Assembly (NCBI RefSeq): GCF_030013205.1
Contig: NZ_CP122648.1
Reading direction: 5' to 3' (one strand)
Length of the DNA stretch: 64,000 nucleotides
Origin: Escherichia coli
GTDB taxonomy: Bacteria; Pseudomonadota; Gammaproteobacteria; Enterobacterales; Enterobacteriaceae
Position numbers and translations under genes: made by a program. A model generated the notes under the pieces. It saw nothing but the letters and a program-made list of their open reading frames with translations. It ran no database searches and was not told where the DNA came from. This document shows positions 2 through 14,738 of the stretch, piece by piece (position 1 is the stretch's first letter; each line of letters starts with the position of its first letter).

Positions 2-529
2 ATGTTCGGCCCGGACAGCGGTAGCCTGGCAAAGCAAGTTGTGGTCTGGTGTGATGGACGTAAGCCGGAAGCATACCAATGGTTTCTGGAGCAAATTCAG
101 GTCTGGGGCGCTCGGCTGCATCGTATTAGCGCCGTCGAGCACGATCAGAATATGGCGTTTATTCAGGCTCTGCGCCACTTTGCTACTTTTGCTTATGGGC
201 TGCACCTGGCAGAAGAAAATGTTCAGCTTGAGCAACTTCTGGCACTTTCTTCGCCGATTTACCGCCTTGAACTGGCGATGGTTGGGCGACTGTTTGCTCA
301 GGATCCGCAGCTTTATGCCGACATTATTATGTTGTCAGAGCGTAATCTGGCGTTAATCAAACGTTACTATAAGCGTTTCGGCGAGGCGATTGAGTTGCTG
401 GAGCAGGGCGATAAGCAGGCGTTTATTGACAGTTTCCGCAAGGTGGAGCACTGGTTCGGCGATTACGCACAGCGTTTTCAGAGTGAAAGCCGCGTGTTAT
501 TGCGTCAGGCGAATGACAACCGCCACTAA
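2..529 (+). CDS. tyrA: Chorismate mutase/prephenate dehydrogenase TyrA, C-terminal part (5' end lies outside the window)
   Basis: Translation ends ...[31 protein letters not shown], matching the TyrA C-terminus; convergent with pheA as in E. coli. Confidence 0.9.
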
Positions 530-571
530 TAATCCAGTGCCGGGTGATTCACATCATCCGGCACCTTTTCA

Positions 572-1732
572 TCAGGTTGGATCAACAGGCACTACGTTCT
601 CACTTGGGTAACAGCCCAATACCTTCATCGAACGGGTGATGTCCCCTAACTCTTTCAATGCTTTTTGCATTTCCGCTGATTCAAGATTGGCCTGAATATC
701 CAGATAAAACATCTCTTCCCATGGATTACCGTGAATCGGGCGTGACTCCAGACGGGTCATAATCAGATTGTGGTTGCGCAGTACCAGCAACGCTTCAACC
801 AGCGCACCAGCTTGTTGCCCGGTCGCCATTAACAACGTCGTTTTCGCTGGAACCTGGTCAGACACGTTAATGGCTTTACGTGCCAACACCACAAATCGGG
901 TGAAGTTTTGTCGCTGATTCGCTTCAATACGCTCCAGTACCTGCAAACCGTACAAAGTGCCGCCAGCTTCGCTTCCCAACGCAGCAACATGCGGTGATTT
1001 TGCCTGTGCAACCTTTTCCATTGCCGCAGACGTACTTTCGGTATATTCAATCTTCCAGTGCGGATAACGATTAAGGAATTTGCTGCATTGCTGGAATGGC
1101 TGCGGATGGCTGTAGACCGTATTGATGGTGGATAAATCAGTAGTGCCGGAGACCAACAAACAATGGTCGATAGTTAACGTCATCTCGCCAACAATCGACA
1201 AACTGGTATGTTGCAGCAGATCGTAAACGTCATTTATGGCACCGGAGCTGGTATTTTCAATCGGTACGACGGCATAGTCGGCCTGGCCGGTTTCCACCTG
1301 ATTAAAAATATCGGCAAATTTGGCGCAGCCACTTTCAATGAATTGCTCAAAGTGACGGGCAGCGTACTGACGAGCGGCAAGATGTGAATAGGAGCCTTTG
1401 GGGCCGAGAAAAGCAATGCGGGCAGAGTGTGGATTAATTTTATTGAGATGTTGCTGGAGCAAAGCCTGCTGAGTTAATACGGAATCTTCAATGATGAGCT
1501 GGAACAGGCGAGTAATGTAATGGGCGTCCAGATGGTGCGCTTTACCGAGCGTAATTAATCTTTCCAGCAAATCGCGTTCACGATCAATATCACGTACCGG
1601 GCGATGCGAGAGCAGTTTGGCTTTTCCCACCTCGACGGCCAGTTCGCGCCGCTCTGCCAGTAATGCTAATAATTTTTCATCCAGCGCGCTGATTTTCTCT
1701 CGCAGCGCCAGTAACGGGTTTTCCGATGTCAT
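572..1732 (-). CDS. pheA: Bifunctional chorismate mutase/prephenate dehydratase
   Basis: 386-aa [25 protein letters not shown]... is full-length PheA. Confidence 0.95.
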
Positions 1733-1756
1733 AGTGTTGCCTTTTTGTTATCAATA

Positions 1757-1784
1757 AAAAAGGCCCCCCGATTTGGGAGGCCTT
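1757..1784 (-). terminator. pheA attenuator/terminator hairpin between pheL and pheA
   Basis: GC-rich hairpin (aggcctcccaaatcggggggcct on the minus strand) followed by a T-run, directly after the pheL stop. Confidence 0.65.
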
Positions 1785-1830
1785 ATTGTTCGTCTTCGCA
1801 TTCTGTTTCACACGACGAAACGCCTCCCAT

Positions 1831-1878
1831 TCAGGGGAAGGTAAAAAAGAATGCGAAGAAAAACGGTGTGTGTTTCAT
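1831..1878 (-). CDS. pheL: pheA leader peptide
   Basis: Minus-strand mini-ORF MKHTPFFFAFFFTFP (15 aa, Phe-rich) with stop at 1831-1833, just upstream of pheA. Confidence 0.85.
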   Translation of the reverse strand: MKHTPFFFAFFFTFP

Positions 1879-1932
1879 GTTTGTTTCCTTAAGTGACTTT
1901 AGTACAGTACCCGTACTGTTTTCACGCTGTCA

Positions 1933-1959
1933 ACAAAAAACGCGCCCGAAGGTGCGTTG
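1933..1959. repeat. attL copy of 27-bp direct repeat (acaaaaaacgcgcccgaaggTgcgttg)
   Basis: Identical to 36563..36589 apart from one mismatch (T vs C); lies next to the integrase gene and abuts the pheL -35 region. Confidence 0.65.
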
Positions 1960-2045
1960 TAAAACCCACTGAATTCAATGTTTTCCCTTTGTTTTCAGTG
2001 GGTTTTGTTATTGGTGGGGGTTACTGATTACCCTATAAAACCCAC

Positions 2046-3035
2046 TTATGTGGATGAAATGTGGATGCCTCCTTTTAATGGATTAAGTGAAATTGCATCC
2101 TGGAGGAAATCAGGAGCGAGGTGCGCATAGGTCATAGTTTGCTGGATCGTGGCGTGCCCCATAATTCGCTGGAGCGTAAGTATATTTCCTCCATTAATCA
2201 TAAAGTGAGCAGCAAAGGTATGGCGTAGAACATGTACAGCCTGTCCTTTTGGTAGGTCTGGCTTAACACTGCGAAGCACCTTGCGATATTCTTCATAATT
2301 GACGTCAAACAAAAGGCCGGATTTCTTTGTTTTGATCTCACTAACAACTTCATCAGAGACAGGAATAATTCGAACTTTTCCGTTTTTAGTTTTGTTAAAC
2401 GTCACGCGATTATTGATGATGTGTTCCGCGCGCAGATTTTTCGCTTCTCCCCATCTCGCCCCAGTACTGAGACAAAGTAGCGTAATCCGCCGAGCATCAC
2501 CGCTTACTGCATCCAGCAATTTGGCGATTTCTTCCGTAGTGAGGTACGTCATTTCGGGTGATTTTCGTTTCAAAGAGGGGAGGGCGCGGAGTGGATTTTC
2601 TCCGTGAAATTCTCCGGCATTTGCCAGGAGTGTAAACATTCCTCCGAGATCCGACTCATCACGCCGAACAGTAGACTCTTTTACTCCCAAGGATAAACGG
2701 GAGCTTCGATAAGCTGCCATGAAACGAGCATTAATCTGGCTAACCCTTGGATCATTCATTTCTTTGATGATTTTTTTCAATCTGGTTAGAACGCCGTTAG
2801 CATATGGCTTATTGCGTCCACCCAATTCCCACCATAACGGAAGCAGATCTGAGAGATGACGTTGCTCTGTTGGCTTTTCAAGCCATTCCTTATCGTGCAT
2901 GTGGCTGAGAACATAGCGCTCAAAGGCCACTGCATCTGCCTTTTTCTTAAAAATCCGCTGGATCCGACGTCCACTTCGGCCACGCGGTCTAACATCCACT
3001 TTATACCGTCCACCATCGAGTGCTTTAATTGCCAT
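2046..3035 (-). CDS. int: Phage integrase (tyrosine recombinase, P2 Int family)
   Basis: MAIKALDGGRYKVDVRPRGR... and C-terminal ...VLRHTFAAHFMINGGNILTLQRIMGHATIQQTMTYAHLAPDFLQDAISLNPL closely resemble P2 Int; start chosen at the Met with a GGAGGG RBS (the ORF could extend to 3068). Confidence 0.85.
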   Translation of the reverse strand: MAIKALDGGRYKVDVRPRGRSGRRIQRIFKKKADAVAFERYVLSHMHDKEWLEKPTEQRHLSDLLPLWWELGGRNKPYANGVLTRLKKIIKEMNDPRVSQINARFMAAYRSSRLSLGVKESTVRRDESDLGGMFTLLANAGEFHGENPLRALPSLKRKSPEMTYLTTEEIAKLLDAVSGDARRITLLCLSTGARWGEAKNLRAEHIINNRVTFNKTKNGKVRIIPVSDEVVSEIKTKKSGLLFDVNYEEYRKVLRSVKPDLPKGQAVHVLRHTFAAHFMINGGNILTLQRIMGHATIQQTMTYAHLAPDFLQDAISLNPLKGGIHISST

Positions 3036-3101
3036 TGGCAAGCCCTCCGGTGAAACGAGGAAAGACATTTCCAGTTTGTAAAACGTAAGAATAATAAAGG
3101 G

Positions 3102-3404
3102 TTAACCAATTTTCCTTTCGGATGGGGGTAAATCCGTTGGTTCTTGCCCATAGTGTGCGAGAGCCGGAGCTATCTGCCCGGATTCAGGCGCAATTTTTCC
3201 AGTCATAAACCACAACGCATATTTCTCAAATCTGGGGTTGTTTAGTATTTGCTCAATTACTTCAGCATTAGGGATAGTTTTACCGCTTTCATATCTCCAC
3301 AGAGCATCACGGTTTAAACCAAGCATTTTTGCTGTATCCGGGAGGCTAGTAAGTCTCTCGCTTTCACGCATGATTTTTATGCGCTCTCCAATAGTCATAC
3401 GCAT
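3102..3404 (-). CDS. P2 C-type immunity repressor
   Basis: ...YALWFMTGKIAPESGQIAPALAHYGQE matches the recalled P2 C repressor C-terminus; divergent from a cox-like gene; start uncertain (ORF extends to 3419). Confidence 0.7.
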   Translation of the reverse strand: MRMTIGERIKIMRESERLTSLPDTAKMLGLNRDALWRYESGKTIPNAEVIEQILNNPRFEKYALWFMTGKIAPESGQIAPALAHYGQEPTDLPPSERKIG

Positions 3405-3499
3405 GTTGCAATTCTCCAACGTCTGTATTAATGTTTATACAAATGAGTTTGATTTGGGGCATCCGTCGCAAGAAATACCCCAAACAGGGAGATTATCAC

Positions 3500-3826
3500 A
3501 TGAATGAAGAACTATTGAGGGCATTGTTTAAGATCCCGGACCCCATCACCGTCGATGAGTTTTCCCGCCGCACAGGTAAGACCGAATCAGCCGTAAGAAA
3601 GTTGGTAGAGCGTCGACTCATCCCTCTAACTACTGAGCGCGAGGTTTTAGGCGAGGAAGGGAGTTCGCGCCGTCTTCTCATCCTTTGGAATGAGTGGCTC
3701 GAAATGGTCTATGACGCAACGAAACAGCTTCCTCCTGAGCGTAAAGATTGGCGCAATCACTGGCTTAAGAAAGCCAAGAAGCTGGCGGAAGATTTGGGAT
3801 TAGGCTTCCTTAATTTTGCTGCATGA
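3500..3826 (+). CDS. Cox/excisionase-like early regulatory protein (putative)
   Basis: First gene of the rightward early operon, divergent from the repressor; positional call only, with no clear similarity to P2 Cox. Confidence 0.4.
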   Translation: MNEELLRALFKIPDPITVDEFSRRTGKTESAVRKLVERRLIPLTTEREVLGEEGSSRRLLILWNEWLEMVYDATKQLPPERKDWRNHWLKKAKKLAEDLGLGFLNFAA

Positions 3827-3844
3827 GATGCAGGGAGTTTTGAT

Positions 3845-4186
3845 ATGAAACAGCAACGTAATTCACGCTTTCGTAATGGTGCTGAACGCCACGCTAACCG
3901 TTTCGCTACCAGTGCATCACGCAGCAACATCCGCTACAGCCTGAGCGAAACACACGCAACGCCGGATGGCTACCCAGTAAAACAAATCGGCGAGCACGCC
4001 TGGTTGATTGAGAAAGCTGGAATCGTGGTCCACAAATGCCCACACAATCCGTTTACCGGAAACCGCATTTTTGCACTAAGCAGCGGCGACAATCAGTTCG
4101 GACAGGATTTCACATTGTACGAAGCACTTCGTACAGTTGATCGTCTGCTTCGCGGACAAAGTTTTATTAAACAGGCTGATTTATAA
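3845..4186 (+). CDS. Hypothetical early-operon protein
   Basis: 113-aa ORF in the early operon. Confidence 0.4.
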   Translation: MKQQRNSRFRNGAERHANRFATSASRSNIRYSLSETHATPDGYPVKQIGEHAWLIEKAGIVVHKCPHNPFTGNRIFALSSGDNQFGQDFTLYEALRTVDRLLRGQSFIKQADL

Positions 4187-4196
4187 CAGGTGCTTT

Positions 4197-4475
4197 ATGA
4201 CCAAAGAGCATGCACAAGGTGTATTTATCCGTTTTATTGATTTTCGCGGTGAACTGTTATTACGCGCATCGGCTATTGATGCTGTAGTTCCGGCAGAAAA
4301 AGATGTGGCCACTTACCTTTATCTGAACGGCACGCGATTGTTTGTGGAACTTCCGTACCAGACCGTACGCGAAATCATTAACGAAGCTGAAAAGGCACGT
4401 CAGGTTAATGGCGATGAACCATATATCGAAATTATCTGCATGGATTCAGAAACTGAAATTCAGAAAGCAGATTAA
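4197..4475 (+). CDS. Hypothetical early-operon protein
   Basis: ATG at 4197 within ORF 4137..4475; 92 aa. Confidence 0.4.
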   Translation: MTKEHAQGVFIRFIDFRGELLLRASAIDAVVPAEKDVATYLYLNGTRLFVELPYQTVREIINEAEKARQVNGDEPYIEIICMDSETEIQKAD

Positions 4476-4486
4476 AGGGCGTTGCG

Positions 4487-4729
4487 ATGGGCAAAGAATA
4501 TAAAACTCTCATTAACAAAGCACTTGAGCGTTTTTATTTTCGCTTAAGTGCATCAGGCGCTCATGCTGAACGTGCAGCCCGCGACTCATTGACCAGGGCA
4601 ATTCGGAGTCTGTATGACGTGGCTTTTTACGCTGATGATCTGGATGCACTTAACGAACTTTCCGAGCTGATCTGTGCCGCAGAATGCGGGGAACATATTG
4701 AACCGTATAAGCTGGGGAATATTGCATGA
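4487..4729 (+). CDS. Hypothetical early-operon protein
   Basis: 80-aa ORF, tightly spaced in the operon. Confidence 0.4.
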   Translation: MGKEYKTLINKALERFYFRLSASGAHAERAARDSLTRAIRSLYDVAFYADDLDALNELSELICAAECGEHIEPYKLGNIA

Positions 4730-4839
4730 GTATATTTATCTCATGGCTTGTTCTGATTATTTCGGTGGCCTGCGCCATTGGGATTATGCGAATTATTAAT
4801 TCAGTAAAAAAGATTGAACGCTTTTTCACTGGTGAATAA
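4726..4839 (+). CDS. Small hydrophobic protein (37 aa, putative)
   Basis: ATGA start/stop overlap with the upstream gene; MSIFISWLVLIISVACAIGIMRIINSVKKIERFFTGE looks like a single transmembrane helix; below the ORF-track cutoff. Confidence 0.3.
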   Translation: MSIFISWLVLIISVACAIGIMRIINSVKKIERFFTGE

Positions 4840-4925
4840 CAGCGCAAATAAAACCACAGGTTAAATAAGAAAATGTAAAAACAATCCGCATTCGCGGAGG
4901 TATTCGCACACGCCAAGGAGGCGCA

Positions 4926-5129
4926 ATGGCAATTAAGCATTTTCCCGTCGTTCGTTTCACTTCCAGAGGACGTGAATACGAGGTCGACGAACGCCTGATT
5001 ACCACAATCGACAAACACCGTTCAGAACAGGATGCACATCACATCTATCTCACTGACGGCACTTACTTCTGCGCCACGAATGTGGTGCGGGTGAACCTTA
5101 TCCGACAGGTACAGGAGTCACGCAGATGA
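4926..5129 (+). CDS. Hypothetical early-operon protein
   Basis: 67-aa ORF. Confidence 0.35.
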   Translation: MAIKHFPVVRFTSRGREYEVDERLITTIDKHRSEQDAHHIYLTDGTYFCATNVVRVNLIRQVQESRR

Positions 5130-5371
5130 CCATTCTGGACTACATCGCCGCCAATCCGGGTTGTAGCGGTGGAGAAATCGCCGCAGCACTGAATACCCCA
5201 ACCACAGCCATTAATGCGGAGTTACGCCGACTCTGGCGCAGCGGTTCAGTCATAAGAAAAGAGCGCAAAACAGGCGGTCGCTTTTCTTACCAGATAAACC
5301 CGATGCCGTTCGGGTGCGGCAATCCACTTACCAACATGTTTAACCAGCTACTGAAGGAAGCCAGAGCATGA
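5126..5371 (+). CDS. Small putative DNA-binding (winged-helix-like) protein
   Basis: 81-aa ORF overlapping the stop of the previous gene; basic, HTH-like segment. Confidence 0.4.
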   Translation: MTILDYIAANPGCSGGEIAAALNTPTTAINAELRRLWRSGSVIRKERKTGGRFSYQINPMPFGCGNPLTNMFNQLLKEARA

Positions 5372-5667
5372 GCGCCATCAACCACCAGGAATTACGCGAA
5401 CTGGCGACTGACCTGCAACGAATGGCAACGCCTCAAAAATTACTGGCGTTTCGCGCAATGCTCTCGCCGTCTGCTGTGCTGGCGCTGCTGGATGAGCTGG
5501 AGCACGCCAGAACCACACCTCTCGCCATTCGCCTGACGCTCCATCATGAAATCGCTGATTTCTGCGCGACATTGGAGGCGCCAGGCGAACCGGAAACGCC
5601 GGAAGCAATACAGCAAGAGCTGCTGCAACGCATTGACAAGGTTTTTGATTTTTTTCTGAACCACTAA
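5368..5667 (+). CDS. Hypothetical early-operon protein
   Basis: 99-aa ORF with overlapping stop/start. Confidence 0.4.
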   Translation: MSAINHQELRELATDLQRMATPQKLLAFRAMLSPSAVLALLDELEHARTTPLAIRLTLHHEIADFCATLEAPGEPETPEAIQQELLQRIDKVFDFFLNH

Positions 5668-5790
5668 GAAACCAGAACATGCACACACAAAAAAACCGCT
5701 TGCCATGCCGTAATCAGTCAGGTTACATTTCCGCTGCACCTCATAAAACGGGTGCCGGGATTCTCAACCCGATACAGAGCAAAGCGCATA

Positions 5791-5810
5791 ACCGCGCCAG
5801 CGGTTTTTTT
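5791..5810 (+). terminator. Putative intrinsic terminator inside the noncoding gap
   Basis: accgc-gcca-gcggt hairpin followed by a run of seven T. Confidence 0.35.
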
Positions 5811-6292: not shown

Positions 6293-6682
6293 ATGATTGA
6301 CGCTCATGACTTCACAAGATGGGTGCGCACACAGGACACCCGTCTGGCTCCCGTTCTTCAGGGATTATTTGATCTCTACATCCGTGGTCGTGACAACAGA
6401 GCACGCACCACAAAACCGGAGAATGCAGACACCCTTTATTTCACAGTAGACGACTGCTACCGCGTGGACTTCACACCACACGGGCTGGCGTTGCACTGCC
6501 TGACACCACACGGCGAATCACTACTGGCGTATTACGACTCCCCGGCCTCCGTATTTGCGGCAATGCTGGCGCATCGCACTGCTGGCGGGTGTGCCTCGCT
6601 GAGTGAATACACCGCTGAATTTGACCGCCTTTCCGCCATCTTCTCGCAGGAGTGGCAGCGCGTGACGGGATACCAGCCATGA
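6293..6682 (+). CDS. Hypothetical protein immediately upstream of gpA
   Basis: 129-aa ORF overlapping the gpA start. Confidence 0.4.
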   Translation: MIDAHDFTRWVRTQDTRLAPVLQGLFDLYIRGRDNRARTTKPENADTLYFTVDDCYRVDFTPHGLALHCLTPHGESLLAYYDSPASVFAAMLAHRTAGGCASLSEYTAEFDRLSAIFSQEWQRVTGYQP

Positions 6683-9504
6683 GTGAGTTTGCATGGAGCT
6701 GGAATGAACCACGACCAGCCATTGATCCGGCCAGATTTACGGAGCGCAGGCAGGAAACTGAAACCGACTTGCAACGCGCCATCCGTTACTACCTTGAGGC
6801 GGACAAAAAGGCCCGGGAAGAACAGGAAGCGAAGGAGGAAGCCTTTTTCGCACAATCCGCCATGGGTAAAAAACTCATGGCATCCCTTGAGGAAGCCGGA
6901 CAGCGTGAAAAGCTGGCACAGAGCATCATCAGTAAGCGCCGGGCAACAGAACAAGACCCAGTAGCCCGTGCCTTTGCCACACTAAAGGCACTACCTGTTT
7001 ATCTGCGTGAACCACTGAGCCGCCACCTCTCTTTCCTGCGCAAAAAACAGGAAGCCGATCGCCAGAAAGGCAAAAAGAGCTGGCAGGCGGAACGCTATGC
7101 ACGCGGAACCCTGCGCAAAATATTCGAACGTCTAGATCGCACTGACGGACGCTGGCTGACACCGGGTTATCGCTCCCTTGCCGGGCGCGAACGCCTGGAC
7201 GATTTGCTTTACCTGCCGCAGCTCAACAAGCACCAGATACAGACGCTGGCCACCATGACCGCGGCGATGTTCAGCAGCACCTTCGAAACACTCTGCGATG
7301 GCTTTGGTGCCAGAGATGGCGAGCTGACCATGGATGTAATGTTGAAGGCTTACCGGATGCTGGCTCGTATCGCATTACGCCTGCACATCATGCCGCCACA
7401 TTACGAAGCCCTGAACAAGAGCGAACCGGATACGGAACTGCTGCCGGGCGCAATCCTTCGCCTGACCTGTGCGGACTGGTGGAAACGCAAACTGTGGCTG
7501 TTACGTTGCGAGTGGAGAGAAGAACAACTCCGCGCCGCCTGTCTGGTTTCCAGAAAAACATCACCCTATCTGAGCCAGGACGCGTTAAGCGAGTTTCGCG
7601 CACAGCGCGAGAAAACACGCGATTTCCTGAAAAGTTTCATGCTGGAAAATGAAGACGGGTTCACGATTGATCTCGAGACGGTGTATTACGCGGGAGTAAG
7701 TAACCCGGTTCACCGTAAGGCAGAAATGATGGCCACCATGAAGGGACTGGAACTTCTGGCCGAAGCCCGTGGCGACAGAGCGGTGTTTCTGACTGTCACC
7801 TGCCCGTCAAAATACCACGCAACAACGGAGAACGGTCATCCGAATCCCAAATGGAACGGGGCCACCATGCGCGACTCCAGCGATTACCTGGTTAACACGT
7901 TTTTTGCGGCGGTCCGCAAGAAACTGAACCGCGACGGCCTGCGCTGGTATGGCATCCGCACGGTGGAGCCTCACCATGACGGCACCGTGCACTGGCATAT
8001 GATGGTCTTTGCCCATCCGGAAGAAATCGACACCATTGTGTCCCACACCCGCGATATTGCCATTCAGGAAGATCGTCACGAGCTGGGCGATGATATTACT
8101 CCGCGCTTTAAGGCGGAGTATGTAGACGGCTCAAAAGGCACGCCAACCAGCTACATCGCCACCTACATCGGAAAGAACCTGGACAGCCGCGCCGTGGATG
8201 GCATCGACCCGAAAACAGGCAAACCACGCGTTGACCACGAAACCGGAAAATCAATGGCCGAGAGCGTGGAGCGCGCCATCGGCTGGGCGCGCCTTCACCG
8301 GGTCCGCCAGTTCCAGTTCTTTGGCATCCCATCCCGTCAGGTGTGGCGTGAACTGCGCCGCCTTGCCAGCCAGATGGCACGCAACCCGGAAGGCCCGCAA
8401 CGGCTGAAGGATGACGCAATGGACGCGGTTCTTGCTGCCGCTGATGCCGGATGTTTTGCCACCTACATTGAGAAACAGGGCGGCGTACTTGTTCCACGCA
8501 AAGACTACCTGATTCGCACCGCCTACGACCTCGCAGATGAGCTGAACGATTACGGCGAACAGAGCGTACAGATTTACGGGATCTGGTCACCACTCATCGG
8601 GGAATCCTCCCGTGTGTGCACGCACCCGGATAACTGGAAGCTGGTAAGACGTAAACCGGAAGCGGAAGACAGCACCCGCGAAAATGGTTTTGACCTTCAG
8701 GGCGGCCCTGCCGCCCCTTGGACTCGTGGCAATAACTGTCCCCGTGTACAGGAAGCAGGCAACAGCGGGACAGAACTGTCGGAAGAGCAACCAACACCGT
8801 GGCCGCAGATCCCTGACGGCGTTGATGTGGATGAATGGATGCGCTCACTGAAACGGCACGAACGCCGGGCGCTGATGCGTTCGCTGCGTGACAAACAGGC
8901 AAAAAACAGCAGTGATGAAATGCAGAGCTGGACACAGAGCCGCAAACAGCAGCGGCCTTTGCCTGATAACCACGAATTACTCGCTAAAGAATGGCGGGAG
9001 TCTGCCGAATCTCTCGGCCTGCATATCGGTGAACAGCAGATGCAGCACCTGTTACGGGGCGGCAGCCTGTACGTTGACGGCAGCATCATTGCACCGCAGG
9101 GATTTGAAATTGTACGCAAACCGGATACCCGCCCGGACAGCCGAATCACGCAGCTCTGGCAGCGCCTGAGCCGTAATCATGGCGTAAGCAGCACGGAGAT
9201 CCGCCATAACCCGGTCGCCAGCTATCTGACACAGCTGGGGGCATCAGACCCTGAAGCCGCCGCACGCCTGGCATCCACACTTCAGCAGGACCAGAACACC
9301 ATGAAAACCCCCGTTACCGTGCTTTCTGACATGCTGCGCGCCATCCGTGACGCAGAGCACGCACAGAGAATCAGTGAAACAACTGAACGCGCCCGCCGCA
9401 AAGCAGACCTGCTGCGGGGTGGCCTGATCAGTGGAAACAAAAAACAGACAGAAACGGGATTCACAAATCCCGTAAATGAGCAAAAAACGTGCCGCGATGT
9501 ATGA
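6679..9504 (+). CDS. Replication initiation protein gpA (rolling-circle HUH endonuclease, P2 A family)
   Basis: 941-aa ORF starting MSEFAWSWNEP...; contains ...DGTVHWHMMVFAHPEE (HUH-type motif); position after the early operon as in P2. Confidence 0.8.
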   Translation: MSEFAWSWNEPRPAIDPARFTERRQETETDLQRAIRYYLEADKKAREEQEAKEEAFFAQSAMGKKLMASLEEAGQREKLAQSIISKRRATEQDPVARAFATLKALPVYLREPLSRHLSFLRKKQEADRQKGKKSWQAERYARGTLRKIFERLDRTDGRWLTPGYRSLAGRERLDDLLYLPQLNKHQIQTLATMTAAMFSSTFETLCDGFGARDGELTMDVMLKAYRMLARIALRLHIMPPHYEALNKSEPDTELLPGAILRLTCADWWKRKLWLLRCEWREEQLRAACLVSRKTSPYLSQDALSEFRAQREKTRDFLKSFMLENEDGFTIDLETVYYAGVSNPVHRKAEMMATMKGLELLAEARGDRAVFLTVTCPSKYHATTENGHPNPKWNGATMRDSSDYLVNTFFAAVRKKLNRDGLRWYGIRTVEPHHDGTVHWHMMVFAHPEEIDTIVSHTRDIAIQEDRHELGDDITPRFKAEYVDGSKGTPTSYIATYIGKNLDSRAVDGIDPKTGKPRVDHETGKSMAESVERAIGWARLHRVRQFQFFGIPSRQVWRELRRLASQMARNPEGPQRLKDDAMDAVLAAADAGCFATYIEKQGGVLVPRKDYLIRTAYDLADELNDYGEQSVQIYGIWSPLIGESSRVCTHPDNWKLVRRKPEAEDSTRENGFDLQGGPAAPWTRGNNCPRVQEAGNSGTELSEEQPTPWPQIPDGVDVDEWMRSLKRHERRALMRSLRDKQAKNSSDEMQSWTQSRKQQRPLPDNHELLAKEWRESAESLGLHIGEQQMQHLLRGGSLYVDGSIIAPQGFEIVRKPDTRPDSRITQLWQRLSRNHGVSSTEIRHNPVASYLTQLGASDPEAAARLASTLQQDQNTMKTPVTVLSDMLRAIRDAEHAQRISETTERARRKADLLRGGLISGNKKQTETGFTNPVNEQKTCRDV

Positions 9505-9552
9505 AGCGCGCACAAAACAGGCAAAAGCGGGATTCCAGAATCCCGTAAACGG
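9452..9552. repeat. Two ~25-bp palindromic repeats (cgggattcNNNNaatcccgtaaa) 73 bp apart, spanning the gpA 3' end and the parM upstream region
   Basis: aaacgggattcacaaatcccgtaaa at 9452-9476 and aaagcgggattccagaatcccgtaaacgg at 9524-9552. Confidence 0.5.
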
Positions 9553-9580
9553 TTAATTAATCAACATAAGGAAAATCGAC

Positions 9581-10540
9581 ATGAAAATTTGTATCGACGA
9601 CGGCTCCACCAACATCAAGCTGGCATGGACTGAGAACGGCGAACGCCGCAACGCCATCAGCCCGAACAGCTTCAAGTCGGAATGGTCTGCGCCGTTCGGT
9701 GGCTCGCAGCCTGCGAACTACATGCTTGATGGCGTGCGCTATGGTTTTGATCCGGTCAGCGATCGCTTTGTCCAGACGACCGACACGCAATACCAGTACA
9801 GCGATGTGAATGTCATTGCCATTCATCACGCGCTGGTCAAATCAGGCATCACGCCTCAGGAGGTGGATGTGGTTGTCACCCTGCCACTGAGCGAGTATTT
9901 CGACACAAACGCACAGCCAGACATGGCCAACATCAACCGCAAAAAAGCGAACGTTATGCGCCCGGTGGAGTACCAGAACGGCGAAGCATTCACTATCCGT
10001 AACGTGCGGGTTATGCCTGAATCCATTCCGGCTGGTTTTAAGGCACTGGCTGACATGAGTCCGTTTGAATCCCTGCTGATTGTGGATTTGGGCGGAACCA
10101 CGCTGGATGTGGCAAAGGTTCAGGGGCAACTGGCAGGTATCAGCCAGGTGTTTTGCGATCCACACGTAGGCGTTTCTCTGATGGCTGATGCCGTGCTGTC
10201 GGTGATGGCCACTAACGGTATGCGTACCAGTCACCACATCGCCAATACCATTATTGAGCACCGTCACGATGAAGCCTGGCTACGCCAGCACATTCACAAT
10301 GACGCGCATTACAACAGCCTGATGGCGGTTATTCGTGAAAAGGAGGAAACACTGAAACAACGCGTGATCCGCGCGCTGGCGGGTTTTTCGGGTTACGGGC
10401 GGGTGATGGTTGTAGGTGGAGGAGCGGAGATTGTGGCACCCGCTATCCGCGAAGCCTGCGGAGTTAATGCGACTTTCATCGCGGACGGGGTGCCACAGTT
10501 TGCTCTGGTTAATGGGCTGTACGCAATGGACAAGGAGTAA
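9581..10540 (+). CDS. parM: ParM/StbA-like actin-family segregation ATPase
   Basis: MKICIDDGSTNIKLAW...ISPNSF...YSDVNVIAIHHAL...VMPESIPAG...IVDLGGTTLD...VGGGAEI...ALVNGLYAM tracks plasmid R1 ParM along its whole length (recalled alignment). Confidence 0.8.
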   Translation: MKICIDDGSTNIKLAWTENGERRNAISPNSFKSEWSAPFGGSQPANYMLDGVRYGFDPVSDRFVQTTDTQYQYSDVNVIAIHHALVKSGITPQEVDVVVTLPLSEYFDTNAQPDMANINRKKANVMRPVEYQNGEAFTIRNVRVMPESIPAGFKALADMSPFESLLIVDLGGTTLDVAKVQGQLAGISQVFCDPHVGVSLMADAVLSVMATNGMRTSHHIANTIIEHRHDEAWLRQHIHNDAHYNSLMAVIREKEETLKQRVIRALAGFSGYGRVMVVGGGAEIVAPAIREACGVNATFIADGVPQFALVNGLYAMDKE

Positions 10541-10544
10541 ATCA

Positions 10545-10859
10545 ATGACGACACCAACCAGACGGATAAGTTTCTATCTGAAGCCCGCCGTCGTCAAGAG
10601 CGAACGGGAGGCGTGCAGTTACCTCGACAGCCTGCCAGCCTCCGAACGCAGCCGCGCACAACGCGCGGCTTTTCTGGCCGGACTGGCTCTTATAAAACGC
10701 ATCCCCGCGTTGGCGTATTCGCTGGCAGAATGGTCAGAAGACGAAATAAGGATGCCACCGCTACCAGTACAGCCTGAAAAACCGGCGAAACCAGCAGCAG
10801 ACAGCGCCCCCCATATGCAGCAGGTGAAGAAGAATATTCAGGCGTTTTTTCCGAAGTGA
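10545..10859 (+). CDS. parR: ParR-like centromere-binding adaptor (putative)
   Basis: RRISFYLKPAVVKSEREACSYLDSLPASERSRAQRAAFLAGLALIKR resembles the R1 ParR N-terminal DNA-binding region; immediately downstream of parM. Confidence 0.6.
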   Translation: MTTPTRRISFYLKPAVVKSEREACSYLDSLPASERSRAQRAAFLAGLALIKRIPALAYSLAEWSEDEIRMPPLPVQPEKPAKPAADSAPHMQQVKKNIQAFFPK

Positions 10860-10873
10860 AAACAGGAGTAACT

Positions 10874-11161
10874 ATGTCCACCATTACCAAAGAATGGTTA
10901 CAACGTAAAATCACAGAGTTTAAATCGTGGCGCGAAGACATCCCGTTCGGTCTTGATGAAGACGATCACAATATGTTAATCGCACTGGAAATCGCACTTG
11001 CATCACTGGAAGCAGAGCCAGTGGCATGGATGCACGCAAATAATCCTATTGGAATACCGGCGATAACAAGAAGTAAAGATGTTGCAGACAGCTGGCGCTC
11101 TAAGGGATGGAATGTATTGCCTCTTTATTCACTGACCCGCTCCATCAATTTATGCCATTAA
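10874..11161 (+). CDS. Hypothetical protein (AT-rich moron gene)
   Basis: ATG at 10874 with an AGGAG RBS; 95 aa; lower GC than flanking phage genes. Confidence 0.4.
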   Translation: MSTITKEWLQRKITEFKSWREDIPFGLDEDDHNMLIALEIALASLEAEPVAWMHANNPIGIPAITRSKDVADSWRSKGWNVLPLYSLTRSINLCH

Positions 11162-11172
11162 TGGAAGTAATC

Positions 11173-11532
11173 ATGATGAAAGATAATTCCGGAAGCCAGC
11201 GTGCATCAGTTGCAGTTATGGTAATGATTAAATTTGTGAAACAGTACACCGGAAAGCCAATCTCGCTCCGGCAATTAAGCAAAGAAACCGTTTCACTGTC
11301 ATATCTGGAGCAAATATTCAGATATTTACGGGAAAGTAGCCTGGTAAAAGCCACACGCGGCCCGGGTGGTGGATATATCCCAACAAAAGAAAATTACAGT
11401 GTTGGTGATATTGTCCGGGCAATGAAATGTTCCGGATTATATACACAGCACGTTATTCTGGCTGCACTGGATAATATTTCTTTAACCAGCCTGCAGGAAG
11501 ACACAAATTATCAGTTGTCTGCCATTGAATAA
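11173..11532 (+). CDS. Rrf2-family (IscR/NsrR-like) transcriptional regulator
   Basis: ...SLSYLEQIFRYLRESSLVKATRGPGGGY... is the Rrf2 HTH signature; AT-rich; start uncertain (11161 or 11173). Confidence 0.6.
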   Translation: MMKDNSGSQRASVAVMVMIKFVKQYTGKPISLRQLSKETVSLSYLEQIFRYLRESSLVKATRGPGGGYIPTKENYSVGDIVRAMKCSGLYTQHVILAALDNISLTSLQEDTNYQLSAIE

Positions 11533-11535
11533 GAA

Positions 11536-11580
11536 AACCCGGAACGGGTGCGCAAATTCTTTGTGCGCCCGTTCCGGGTT
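11536..11580. terminator. Strong bidirectional hairpin terminator (21-bp stem)
   Basis: aacccggaacgggtgcgcaaa-ttc-tttgtgcgcccgttccgggtt between the convergent Rrf2 gene and the zinc-finger gene. Confidence 0.6.
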
Positions 11581-11600
11581 GGACAAGCGAAGCGCGTCAG

Positions 11601-11858
11601 CTATCCGGCCTGCAACAACTCCAGAGCCATTTGTTTTTCTTCCGGACGCATCCGCTCAATCAACAGCTTTAACACACCATTCTCCAGCCCGCTGGGCACC
11701 AGTGTGTGCGAGTAGGTCAGATTCATCACCCAGGTATGTCCGCACTCGAGACGGGTGCAACGGTAATACACATCAGCAAACTGATCGGTTTTCCAGGCTG
11801 TTTTCTCAATCACTGCATGTGCACCGCAGCAATGACATCGCGCTTTCTGTCTGCGCAT
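11601..11858 (-). CDS. Ogr/Delta-family zinc-finger late transcription activator (putative)
   Basis: C-x-CC ... C-x4-C spacing (RCHCCG...YYRCTRLECGHTW) parallels P2 Ogr; start at the Met with a GGGAGGTGG RBS. Confidence 0.5.
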   Translation of the reverse strand: MRRQKARCHCCGAHAVIEKTAWKTDQFADVYYRCTRLECGHTWVMNLTYSHTLVPSGLENGVLKLLIERMRPEEKQMALELLQAG

Positions 11859-11923
11859 TTTCCACCTCCCGGAACAGCGTTTTACTGCCACCGATTTTAC
11901 CCGCTCTTTCCCCATACCGCACA

Positions 11924-12958
11924 TCACTCCGTGGATTCGTTAAATTCAAGAATAAATTCCACCTGCCCCAGCCGTCTGATATCCGGATCGCTGTTGATCC
12001 CCTCCATAATCAGACGGCGCATCGGAATAACCTCATCTCTGTAATATGCCTCGCGGGATTTCAGTGGGTCACCAAGCCCGGCCGTATTTGCGGGAATGAT
12101 GCCGGCAAGTCCGGGTGGAAAACGGTGCGCAACGAGCTGATCCTGGGCACTGATGGTTTTTATATTCAGGAACTCATCTTTTGTGCCTGAATCCCCGATA
12201 GGGATCACCTTAACGCCTTCTTTGTCTCCGCCCGGTATATTGATAAACATGGATTTAAAATTGCCCGCCCCTTTTGACGCCTCTATCTTTTTACGGAATT
12301 CCGCCTCGAGCTCGGGATCCATGTCCGGGTCAGTGGAATACAGGATATAACCAAGATGTGCGCCGTTCTTGTAATACTTGCGGCGAAAGCGGGTGGCATC
12401 CACATTCAGCATGGCGGATTCCATCCCGTGAATATAATCCGGGACACCGTAAACCTGCTGTTGCGGGTCATAAATGGCCACGAACACCACTTCGCCTGGC
12501 GGGTAAACGAGATCTTCCAGTGCTGCCTGCACAATCACCGTGCCACCCTCGTTGTTACGCCGCAGGTACAGAGAAGGTAACGTATGCAGGCGCACCACGC
12601 GACCGAAGCCATTGCGCACTTTAAGCAACCCCATATCCCCGAATATCAGCAGATTGGTTACTGCTGCCGCCATGGCGGCGTGTGTCATACCACCACCACC
12701 CCGAAAACCCTGCATGATCATATTGACGCGCGCACGCAATACCGCGCCGTGATACGGTGCGATATTGGACAACATGGCGAGATCCATGCGCTCAATTGGC
12801 GGCGTGTACCAGCCGTTATAGCCATCCCAGAGCGAGCCGTAATAACAGCCCCATGCAGCGACCGGTTCCGGGTCACCAAATTCAATAAACGTCATTTTGC
12901 TGGCTGTTTTTTTTGCCACGCCATCGTGTAACACGGGGTATTTTTTCTTTTTACTCAT
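11924..12958 (-). CDS. Portal (capsid vertex) protein gpQ
   Basis: 344-aa ORF directly downstream of and co-oriented with the terminase ATPase, as for P2 Q. Confidence 0.8.
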   Translation of the reverse strand: MSKKKKYPVLHDGVAKKTASKMTFIEFGDPEPVAAWGCYYGSLWDGYNGWYTPPIERMDLAMLSNIAPYHGAVLRARVNMIMQGFRGGGGMTHAAMAAAVTNLLIFGDMGLLKVRNGFGRVVRLHTLPSLYLRRNNEGGTVIVQAALEDLVYPPGEVVFVAIYDPQQQVYGVPDYIHGMESAMLNVDATRFRRKYYKNGAHLGYILYSTDPDMDPELEAEFRKKIEASKGAGNFKSMFINIPGGDKEGVKVIPIGDSGTKDEFLNIKTISAQDQLVAHRFPPGLAGIIPANTAGLGDPLKSREAYYRDEVIPMRRLIMEGINSDPDIRRLGQVEFILEFNESTE

Positions 12959-14738
12959 CTGACAGGATCCATGTTGATTTGCGCTTGTGCTTATAGTTCA
13001 GGGGTTCATTACTTGCGGCATGAGCTATGGCAAAGAAGATGTCAGCGTGCCCGGTTTCTTCGCTACGTTCGGCGGTGAAAGTGACTTTATTGCCGCTGTT
13101 GGTGGATTCCTGACGAATGGCCAGGAACGATGCCGGAATATCCGTGGCTTCTTCATCCCACTCAATACGGTTGGCGTAAATCAGATCCAGCATCTTCATC
13201 ACCAGGCGGTTTTTGGATTCCACGCTGTAATGAATGGCCACTGTTTCACGGCGGGCAAATCCCTGAACCAGCTCAAAGACACCGTAGCCAAGACCGGTGA
13301 CGTCAATGCCGATAAATGTCATGTTATAGCGCGCCTTAATGCTGCGGATACGCTCTGCCATAAACTGGAATGACATGCTGCGCCAGTGGTGTTTTTCCAG
13401 CACGCGGAATCGTTCTGCCGCAACCAGCGGCGGTGCCAGCACAACAAATGTGGCGTTATCGCCGGAGCGCGCAGGGTCAAAGCCGCCCCACACTTCACGG
13501 TTACCAAATGGCATGGGCTCTTCCGGGTGAAAATCCTCCCACGTACTGACATCAACACCACAACGCACAAGATCATCGAATTTAAAGACGCTCTCTTTGT
13601 CATCCACAAACACACACATAAACAGCATATTGAACGCTGTTTCGTTGTATCGCTCGCGCAGCTCGTTGATGTCAGCAAGGTTAAAGCCGCCGGCAATGGC
13701 ATCTTCCAGCGTAACCACATAGCGCCACTGACCATCCGGACATTCACGCCCACCATCGCGCAGCTCATCAAAGGACGGAAACTCAACCCCTTTTCGTTTC
13801 GGATCGCCTTTGCGCCATTCATCGCCAGACCAGAACGGGTAACCCTGGTGTGTTTTGGATGACGGCGTGGAGAAATAGGTAATGCGCCAGTGTTTATGGG
13901 TGGCCATCCCTGATGCCACTTCATTGAGACGGCGAAAACCGGGGATCCACAGGTATTCATCAATATACAGGTGGCCGCTGTTTGACTGCGCTGTGTTACT
14001 GTTGGTCGCCAGAAAATACAGTTCAGCCAGATTACTTAACTTAACCGGATTGCCTTTAATGGGAATGCCAAACTCTGTTTGTGCAATTTTTACAATATAA
14101 GTACGGAACACTTCGGCCTGACGTTTTGATGCCGATAAAAATATCTGTGTGTCGCCGGTTAATACTGCATCTTCAAATGCCTCAAACGCGAAGTAATACG
14201 TCGCCCCAATCTGGCGGGATTTAAGCAGGTTGCGTACACGGCGGAATTTGTTTTCACGCAGATGCAACTGATAAGCAAACAACTTTTTCGTAAACGGCTC
14301 AAAACTTTCAGCAGTCAGTCCGGAAACGTCATTAGTTTTGCGGGGACGCTCTTTCTTACCTGCACCTTTTTCTCCGCGTTCTTCTTTTCCATAACGGCCA
14401 GGCTGGGGGATGTCCACTCCCATTCGCGCAATCTCAGCCATTCGTTCTGTATGCTTGTTTCTGACCGACATCAGTTTGACGTGATGACCAATCAGGCGAT
14501 CAAGCTCATCGTGTTCTTCCTGGGTCTTATGGTCACGTTCCGCCAGTACAGCGAGACGCCGGGCGATAACATCCTCCACGCCTTCCGTATTGAGCTGCGT
14601 GTACCACTCAAACTTTGTCGCCCAGTAATAAACAATTCGCGGACTGTTCAGTCCGAGTTTCTTTTGTATTTCTTTTGGTGTGTGCCTTTTCAGATAGAGT
14701 GATTTTGCTGCGGCAATCACCTCATCAGAATACGCCAT
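12951..14738 (-). CDS. Terminase large (ATPase) subunit gpP
   Basis: 595-aa ORF; size, position and divergence from the O-N-M-L operon as in P2. Confidence 0.85.
   Translation of the reverse strand: MAYSDEVIAAAKSLYLKRHTPKEIQKKLGLNSPRIVYYWATKFEWYTQLNTEGVEDVIARRLAVLAERDHKTQEEHDELDRLIGHHVKLMSVRNKHTERMAEIARMGVDIPQPGRYGKEERGEKGAGKKERPRKTNDVSGLTAESFEPFTKKLFAYQLHLRENKFRRVRNLLKSRQIGATYYFAFEAFEDAVLTGDTQIFLSASKRQAEVFRTYIVKIAQTEFGIPIKGNPVKLSNLAELYFLATNSNTAQSNSGHLYIDEYLWIPGFRRLNEVASGMATHKHWRITYFSTPSSKTHQGYPFWSGDEWRKGDPKRKGVEFPSFDELRDGGRECPDGQWRYVVTLEDAIAGGFNLADINELRERYNETAFNMLFMCVFVDDKESVFKFDDLVRCGVDVSTWEDFHPEEPMPFGNREVWGGFDPARSGDNATFVVLAPPLVAAERFRVLEKHHWRSMSFQFMAERIRSIKARYNMTFIGIDVTGLGYGVFELVQGFARRETVAIHYSVESKNRLVMKMLDLIYANRIEWDEEATDIPASFLAIRQESTNSGNKVTFTAERSEETGHADIFFAIAHAASNEPLNYKHKRKSTWILSDE

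Follow-up and report, generated by a model that had tools for sequence, protein, structure and literature searches.

Introduction

The region between gpA and gpQ of P2-like phages is a hotspot with 1,650 gene arrangements, and a partition system occupies this slot in about a quarter of these phages (Rousset et al. 2022, PMC9122126). One arrangement, given in Table S5 of that study as 'hypothetical + Rrf2' (WP_000104418 + WP_000974052), is absent from its table of evaluated systems (PMC9122126). In the present study, we analysed the same arrangement in a 64,000-nucleotide stretch of Escherichia coli DNA (assembly GCF_030013205.1, contig NZ_CP122648.1; hereafter, the window), where it forms an AT-rich segment of a P2-family prophage at positions 10860-11535 with two open reading frames (ORFs), ORF1 and ORF2. 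The reading that we favour, and that we hold to be evenly balanced between right and wrong, is that the segment is a lambdoid-derived occupant of the gpA-gpQ slot, in which ORF1 would be a weakly constrained chimera and ORF2 an early, constitutive IscR-like DNA-binding regulator.

Two described proteins bear on this reading. In the Rrf2 protein IscR, the major groove of type-2 sites is recognised through Ser40, Glu43 and Gln44, whereas Arg59 and the wing glycines touch the minor groove (PMC5411485, PMC9338935). For lambda Ea22, to which ORF1 is compared below, a pro-lysogenic role is reported (PMC7093339), which is not transferable to ORF1. The locus itself is already catalogued (PMC9122126) but uncharacterised, and in the literature on WP_000974052 or on a phage-encoded Rrf2/IscR we found no report of an IscR-like protein lacking the cluster-binding loop in the way ORF2 does.

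Results

ORF2, a predicted IscR-like winged helix-turn-helix protein without the sensor loop

The segment and its right-hand edge contain the following features, of which ORF1 and ORF2 are annotated in RefSeq.

10864-10868, plus strand: AGGAG, ribosome-binding site of ORF1, 5 nt before the start codon
10874-11161, plus strand: ORF1, 95 aa
10988-11025, plus strand: 38-bp linker common to two paralogous genes and putative recombination joint of ORF1, encoding EIALASLEAEPVA
11163-11167, plus strand: GGAAG, ribosome-binding site of ORF2, read from the sequence
11173-11532, plus strand: ORF2, 119 aa, the mini-Rrf2 protein
11536-11580: hairpin with a 21-bp stem, between the convergent genes ORF2 and ogr

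The stop codon of the partition gene parR is separated from the start of ORF1 by 14 nt, and ORF1 from ORF2 by 11 nt. ORF2 has alternative starts at 11161 and 11176, and the ATG at 11161 overlaps the stop codon TAA of ORF1 (11159-11161) as TAATG.

ORF2 matched the Pfam Rrf2 model PF02082 (E 6.8e-13), with the match confined to positions 2-85 of the 132 in the model, which form the winged helix-turn-helix, and contains the Rrf2 wing motif L-x3-G-x6-G-x2-GG-x2-L, seen as RGPGGGY. The match does not extend over the C-terminal dimerisation region. ORF2 also matched PHROG 24072 (E 1e-47), and its best match by sequence in the PDB was IscR (4HF0) over residues 8-84, with the recognition helix (SLSYLEQ.F) and the wing (RGPGGGY) identical. 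With the AlphaFold2 model of ORF2 (predicted local distance difference test, pLDDT, 89.5) as the query, the top 36 Foldseek matches in the PDB were all Rrf2 proteins, the best being apo-IscR 4HF0 with a template modelling score of 0.72 over approximately 115 residues. The residues Ser40, Glu43, Gln44 and Arg59 of IscR correspond to S43, E46, Q47 and R62 of ORF2, and the GGG wing is also kept.

ORF2 contains one Cys in total and hence no Cys triad, and the loop bearing IscR's [2Fe-2S] iron-sulfur (Fe-S) cluster ligands, Cys92, Cys98, Cys104 and His107, is missing from ORF2 and from all 22 aligned mini-Rrf2 relatives. An earlier reading of the window, hereafter the original prediction, had noted an Rrf2/IscR helix-turn-helix signature in the second gene and no obvious Fe-S cysteine triad; both observations agree with our results, and it is the whole cluster loop that is deleted. 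Because this ligand loop is deleted, ORF2 is predicted to be unable to sense clusters. The gene is not linked to isc genes and sits in a prophage hotspot.

Between E. coli and Salmonella, ORF2 showed 8 synonymous and 2 non-synonymous changes, giving a ratio of non-synonymous to synonymous change (pN/pS) of 0.07. Furthermore, the DNA identity of ORF2 is at least 97% in three cassette variants, in each of which no other gene lies between ORF2 and the hairpin. ORF2 is under purifying selection and is the conserved gene of the cassette.

A phage-only mini-Rrf2 clade

In a profile search of 1.8 billion representatives, approximately 28 representative clusters of 95-135 aa matched ORF2 along its whole length, and thousands of ordinary Rrf2 proteins, matching in the DNA-binding domain only, ranked below them. 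The distant mini-Rrf2 relatives were missed by a word-indexed protein search. In every aligned member of the clade, approximately 25 residues of IscR are missing, a stretch that includes Cys92, Cys98, Cys104 and His107 as well as the first half of the next helix. Among 21 members, no variation was seen at S41, S43, Y44, E46, G63, G66, G67 and Y68. ORF2 belongs to a small phage-only mini-Rrf2 clade lacking the Cys/His cluster loop of IscR.

The same alignments bear on an action at the protein level, in which the mini-Rrf2 protein would heterodimerise with host IscR as a dominant negative or would sequester a partner. The closest cellular relatives of ORF2 are IscR proteins, and its C-terminal 'LAALDNISL' corresponds in the alignment to the distal half of IscR's dimerisation helix, as such an interference would suggest. 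However, the proximal half of this helix is deleted throughout the clade, and the reading head and wing are strictly conserved, as expected for direct DNA binding; we regard interference between proteins as quite improbable.

The gene neighbourhoods were read in 15 representative independent loci and in ten further IMG/VR loci with the window's own cassette; loci are given below by their L numbers. In L004, L005, L022, L026, L027, L028, L051, L060 and L093, the mini-Rrf2 gene lies between a cI-type repressor gene and xis/int and is oriented as the leftward early genes are. In L007, L023, L029, L041, L044 and L047, it is located downstream of replication genes and immediately behind a DUF1627-type winged-helix gene, which it often overlaps by 1-14 nt. 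The closest relatives of ORF2 (44-51% identity) are mostly in this second group, and DUF1627 and mini-Rrf2, both DNA-binding proteins, may form a genuine conserved pair. The DUF1627-type protein has an N-terminal winged-helix motif, METVLD...G.W.

Otherwise, the immediate neighbours of the mini-Rrf2 genes are unrelated to one another and to ORF1, and EaA-like linker proteins are encoded near the mini-Rrf2 gene in L022. Because the relatives of ORF2 have other partners in lambdoid early operons, ORF1 and ORF2 are not a conserved two-gene system. In L022, a DndB-family gene (4697-5806) lies one gene downstream of the mini-Rrf2 gene, and in L026, a faint PAPS-reductase-like gene (1523-2401) lies five genes downstream. 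These neighbours hint at a link to sulfur or DNA-modification modules and may be there by chance.

ORF1, a putative modular chimera

Residues 1-86 of ORF1 matched PHROG 660 (E 3.3e-18) and PHROG 60 (E 9.2e-17), both of which are families of unassigned function, and tblastn matched ORF1 to the N-terminal parts of Ea22/EaA/DUF551/DUF550 genes in lambdoid and P22-like phages. The homologues numbered 274. The original prediction had recognised no family for the first gene; this view gives way to the PHROG families and to the EaA/Ea22/DUF551 relatives, though ORF1 had no match in Pfam even at E <= 10, with none to PF13935 (Ead/Ea22) or PF04448 (DUF551), no match in NCBIfam and no sequence match in the PDB even at E <= 10. 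At the DNA level, short mosaic stretches of ORF1 recur in genes of lambdoid prophages, across more than 600 E. coli genomes.

In ORF1, the AlphaFold2 model of which has a pLDDT of 85, residues 6-46 form a helical hairpin; the linker IALASLEAEPVAW follows, and residues 49-85 make up a 'PVAW...PLY' module of beta-beta-alpha-beta type. In an alignment of 44 homologues, the N-terminal helical module is variable and the linker nearly invariant; the 'PVAW...PLY' module comes next, trailed in many relatives of ORF1 by further domains. ORF1 is an EaA/Ea22/DUF551-associated modular phage protein.

The loci L014-L017 contain two paralogous genes, of 137 aa and 88 aa, approximately 650 bp apart (2946-3594). 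In BLAST comparisons with these loci, window positions 10874-11025 are the 5' end of the 137-aa gene and positions 10988-11161 the 3' end of the 88-aa gene. On a larger scale, positions 9500-11025 aligned to 1421-2946 of L014, and positions 10988-13000 aligned to 3594-5606, the two matches overlapping in the 38-bp linker. The approximately 650 bp present in L014-L017 and absent from the window contain the end of the 137-aa gene, a 95-aa PHROG 2821 gene and the start of the 88-aa gene. ORF1 accordingly appears to be a chimera of the two paralogous genes joined at the 38-bp linker. In the variant locus L018, an Ead_Ea22 gene and a 65-aa gene stand ahead of the same ORF1 chimera.

Between E. coli and Salmonella, ORF1 showed 3 synonymous and 8 non-synonymous changes (pN/pS 0.73), suggesting that it is weakly constrained. 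ORF1 is probably dispensable filler or an adaptor-like module.

The chimeric ORF1 with its near-neutral substitution, together with the rapid turnover of the hotspot, would fit the view that the whole segment is functionless passenger DNA from hotspot recombination. However, ORF2 is intact and shows the identity and the excess of synonymous changes given above, and the mini-Rrf2 clade is kept across many phages, so that passenger DNA is a highly improbable explanation of the segment. The arrangement of the two genes could also recall a toxin-antitoxin pair with ORF1 as the toxin and ORF2 as the antitoxin and autoregulator: both genes are small and adjacent, the partner is a helix-turn-helix protein, and translational coupling through TAATG (11159-11163) is possible. 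However, the relatives of ORF2 follow DUF1627 or unrelated small ORFs, so the pairing is unconserved, the relatives of ORF1 are mostly stand-alone or fused to DUF551/DUF550, and ORF1 itself combines the pN/pS given above with the features of a deletion chimera. No match to a toxin family was found in PHROG, NCBIfam, PADLOC, Pfam or the PDB. We consider a toxin-antitoxin pair hardly credible.

Because the relatives of ORF2 were found only in lambdoid early regions and ORF1 matches lambdoid EaA/Ea22/DUF551 genes, the most likely source of the cassette is a lambdoid phage, in its accessory early region.

The segment as cargo of the gpA-gpQ hotspot

The window contains a P2-family prophage of the P88 type (Xuanwuvirus), which spans approximately 2000-35000. 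The genes of its backbone relevant to the segment are as follows.

2046-3068, minus strand: integrase
3102-3419, minus strand: C-type repressor, PHROG 147
3431-3826, plus strand: Cox-like gene
6652-9504, plus strand: gpA, replication endonuclease
9581-10540, plus strand: parM
10545-10859, plus strand: parR, backbone gene for a 104-aa partition protein, PHROG 2515 (E 8.5e-44)
11601-11858, minus strand: ogr/Delta-like zinc-finger late activator, PHROG 603 (E 1.7e-28), RefSeq annotation
11924-12958, minus strand: portal Q
12951-14738, minus strand: terminase P

The G+C content of 10860-11535 is 0.425, below that of every 676-nt interval sampled in the prophage (2000-35000, step 25 nt; mean 0.524, standard deviation 0.039), and across the whole 64 kb, 0.4% of such intervals are as low. 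The G+C content at third codon positions is 0.43 in ORF1 and 0.39 in ORF2, compared with 0.53-0.64 in gpA, parM, parR, ogr, Q and P.

Homology to the phages P88 and vB_EcoM-569R5 runs through parM, ends in the 3' third of parR at 10704-10742 (BLAST breakpoints) and picks up again at ogr/Q; between parR and the portal gene, both phages have unrelated genes. In the relative from strain 89-3156, the slot is filled by genes of 143 aa and 87 aa and by an XF1762-family pseudogene. The edges of the slot are the 3' third of parR on the left and, on the right, ogr, which is a backbone gene of this sub-lineage and accompanies other cargo in L021. The segment is located between gpA and gpQ and its content differs among relatives, as is the case for P2-like hotspot cargo. 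These results support the conclusion that the segment is independently acquired cargo occupying the gpA-gpQ hotspot of P2-like phages. Both the sharp shift to AT-rich composition after parR and the independent acquisition had been put forward in the original prediction, and they stand on the base composition and on the break and resumption of backbone homology, respectively.

Among 5,426 complete E. coli genomes, 44 contain the cassette with an identity of 95-100%, 36 of them at full length, and it was found as well in prophages of Salmonella and Escherichia sp. and in the ten IMG/VR loci mentioned above. In the Salmonella cassette (L010-L013, 4229-5101), an extra 209-aa gene of PHROG 12870 lies on the minus strand between the hairpin and ogr. 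In E. coli K_EC180 (L001, 6742-9103), identity to the window stops at 11793, inside ogr, and tail-fibre genes replace the portal and terminase genes. Because tail-fibre genes stand where the portal and terminase genes are expected, the K_EC180 copy of the prophage would be rearranged or partly deleted.

Ordinary conserved P2 late genes were ruled out as an identity for the two ORFs, which are on the early strand and have lambdoid early accessory genes as relatives.

The position of the segment calls for a comparison with anti-phage or superinfection-exclusion cargo, in which protection of the lysogen would come either from ORF2 alone, a repressor-like protein attaching to the DNA of incoming phages, or from ORF1 and ORF2 together. 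The gpA-gpQ hotspot is enriched in defence systems, three of eight further systems cloned from the P2 hotspot gave resistance (PMC9122126), and 15-32% of P2 hotspot proteins without a known role are predicted to be antiviral. However, PADLOC-DB 2.0 returned no match for ORF1, ORF2, parM or parR (E <= 0.1) and no real match for six variant-cassette genes (E <= 0.01). Moreover, neither an enzymatic nor an effector domain was found, ORF1 appears to be a relaxed chimera, the homologues are in phage early operons rather than in defence islands, and the arrangement is listed in PMC9122126 and is not among the systems tested there. Anti-phage cargo is an improbable reading on this evidence. The sole PADLOC match, PDC-S02 (E 0.0046), belongs to an unrelated cargo gene in L021 and was set aside.

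The original prediction had also suggested a two-component toxin/regulator or defence pair. This suggestion is not supported, since the pairing is unconserved beyond this lineage, ORF1 appears to be a weakly constrained deletion chimera and PADLOC gave no match. The toxin-antitoxin and defence-pair readings were rejected for want of a conserved pairing and of an effector domain.

Expression and the hairpin at the edge of the slot

The rightward early operon is tightly packed, from the Cox-like gene through gpA, parM, parR, ORF1 and ORF2, all on the plus strand. Crude, consensus-based promoter scans of 10400-12000 and 9300-9700 gave nothing convincing, with no sigma-70-like site between parR and ORF1, and neither a promoter nor a terminator match was found by scan between parR and the hairpin.

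The stem of the hairpin at 11536-11580 has 21 consecutive pairs on the plus strand (19 Watson-Crick and 2 G-U) and folds at -43.3 kcal/mol (z = -7.1), and none of 200 shuffled sequences folded as well. The minus-strand fold has two A-C mismatches in the stem, an energy of -36 kcal/mol and the tail UUUUCUUAUU. Because the T-run GGGUUUUCUUAUU is on the minus strand only, the hairpin is a canonical intrinsic terminator for the convergent ogr only; on the cassette strand, the stem is strong and no U-tract follows it. The identical hairpin follows a different cargo gene in L021, and it is present in 41 E. coli genomes, at least five of which have the other cargo of the L021 type. Because the same hairpin follows this other cargo, it appears to be a conserved element of the hotspot edge and not a part of the acquired unit.

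These results alter the original prediction of a moron closed by a very strong 21-bp-stem terminator. The stem stands with its 21 pairs, and as a terminator it is canonical in the direction of ogr only. The hairpin appears not to belong to the acquired unit, being found behind other cargo as well. The segment has the atypical base composition of a moron and no detectable promoter of its own; with a gap of 14 nt after parR and a terminator common to other cargo, a moron in the strict sense is not supported.

A classic moron would here be a lysogenic-conversion regulator, expressed from the repressed prophage and altering the host through, for example, IscR-controlled Fe-S, fimbrial or biofilm genes. 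The base composition, a position matching that of old and tin, which are expressed in P2 lysogens, and the IscR-like reading-head residues of ORF2 are consistent with this role, and the upstream ParMR system, with parC-like repeats at 9438-9549, may be autoregulated and active in the prophage. However, no promoter was detected, the unit appears to have no terminator of its own, and all relatives are in early, lytic-phase operons co-directional with replication or recombination genes. A lysogenic-conversion regulator is a possible but unlikely reading of the segment.

Other features of the prophage and its surroundings

A 39-nt direct repeat, the two copies of which (9438-9476 and 9511-9549) are 82% identical, flanks the stop codon of gpA upstream of parM, and the palindrome CGGGATTC..GAATCCCG is present in both copies. 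These repeats are probably the parC centromere/operator of the ParMR system.

An inverted repeat of 24 nt, 83% complementary, is formed by 10586-10609 in the 5' part of parR and 10941-10964 in the middle of ORF1, 331 nt apart, and is probably due to chance. An Rfam scan of 9300-12100 returned a chance match alone (E 0.52).

The early operon contains a 99-aa gene of PHROG 4144 at 5368-5667, with the motif LALLDELE, typical of Ead/Ea22-like proteins. If the gene is of this kind, EaA/Ea22-type modules would also be in the backbone of this P2-like phage. The integrase gene lies approximately 300 bp from a 386-aa ORF beside the prophage (572-1732), which we presume to be pheA (chorismate mutase/prephenate dehydratase), and the attachment site would be in the intergenic region between them. 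ARAGORN found a single tRNA gene in the window, tRNA-Glu (UUC) at 44578-44653; it sits in a 5.8-kb stretch (42507-48303) without an ORF of at least 150 aa, compatible with the presence of an rRNA operon beyond the prophage.

Discussion

The favoured reading suggests the following course of events. ORF2 would be the functional gene of the cassette and would be expressed at the end of the rightward early operon (Cox-like ... gpA-parM-parR-ORF1-ORF2) or from a parMR promoter, because the gaps of 14 and 11 nt, the lack of a promoter or terminator match from parR to the hairpin and the shared early-gene orientation all point to a common transcript, which would end at the hairpin shared with ogr. 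Because the equivalents of Ser40, Glu43, Gln44 and Arg59 and the GGG wing are kept, a dimer of ORF2 may bind DNA constitutively, as apo-IscR does at type-2-like sites. Its targets would be host IscR-type operators or phage sites, and ORF2 may thereby regulate host genes, with the IscR regulon as the leading candidate, or phage genes, in the early phase or on induction. ORF2 would, in the favoured reading, be neither a toxin nor part of a defence pair nor a late gene.

Several points weigh against this reading. ORF2 scored below the NCBIfam cut-offs for both IscR (TIGR02010, 59.2 bits against 207.55) and the Rrf2 superfamily model (TIGR00738, 53.4 bits against 73.3). Because the N-terminal arm KGRYA of IscR is not conserved in ORF2 and half of the dimerisation helix is missing, the specificity or the oligomeric state of ORF2 may differ from that of IscR. 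The IscR type-2 consensus was found at 9 sites in the window, with 9.2 expected, none of them near the cassette. In addition, one promoter-like site with 9 of 12 matching positions lies inside ORF1 (10884-10911), with 2.0 expected by chance, and there may be a weak internal promoter or a parMR promoter that is active in the lysogen. The position in the hotspot also raises the prior probability of a defence function. DNA binding, dimerisation and expression of ORF2 are predictions from sequence.

A broader proposal is that enterobacterial temperate phages carry sensor-less IscR mimics, made early after infection or induction, that would act on apo-IscR (type-2-like) operators whatever the Fe-S status of the cell, which we regard as rather unlikely. 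If true, such mimics would switch the Fe-S, oxidative-stress or anaerobic regulon of the host for the phage, or would blind an Fe-S-dependent host response, and viruses would be seen to hijack the IscR circuit for the first time. If ORF2 binds IscR-type operators, a virus would be locking a host circuit that senses metal clusters into one state, and ORF2 would provide a minimal Rrf2 scaffold of natural origin on which the tuning of DNA specificity by the cluster loop could be studied. The locus as such is ordinary hotspot cargo. The interest lies in ORF2, which defines a compact, phage-only branch of the Rrf2/IscR proteins, with the sensing loop cleanly lost and the DNA-reading residues kept, and which is under purifying selection. 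The segment also counsels caution in the mining of hotspots: not every gene between gpA and gpQ of P2 looks like defence, and one of the two genes here appears to be a by-product of recombination.

The segment may finally be set beside the systems that it most resembles. Like the cargo described in the gpA-gpQ slot, such as old, tin and retrons (PMC9122126), the cassette lies beside cos/Q and its content differs among close relatives; unlike that cargo, it lacks a defence-associated domain, gave no PADLOC match and showed no promoter of its own. With the proteins of the lambdoid exo-xis/'ea' region (lambda Ea22, P22 EaA, DUF551 and DUF550), ORF1 has in common the N-terminal helical module, the linker IALASLEAEPVAW and PVAW...PLY, whereas ORF1 consists of the head only, without a C-terminal domain. 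The DUF1627 and mini-Rrf2 pair of lambdoid early-right operons carries the closest relatives of ORF2; in the window, however, there is no DUF1627 gene, and ORF1 is unrelated to DUF1627.

Apo-IscR of E. coli (4HF0, 4HF1 and 4CHU) is the best match of ORF2 by both sequence and fold. ORF2 has 119 aa compared with 162 aa in IscR, and both the loop with Cys92, Cys98, Cys104 and His107 and the proximal half of the dimerisation helix are missing from it. The next-best structural matches are the CymR proteins of Bacillus subtilis and Staphylococcus aureus (2Y75 and 3T8R), which are likewise Rrf2 regulators without a cluster. However, CymR keeps a full-length dimerisation region (129-143 aa) and works with a CysK-type partner (PMC9338935), and ORF2 scored 49 bits against a CymR cut-off of 195.

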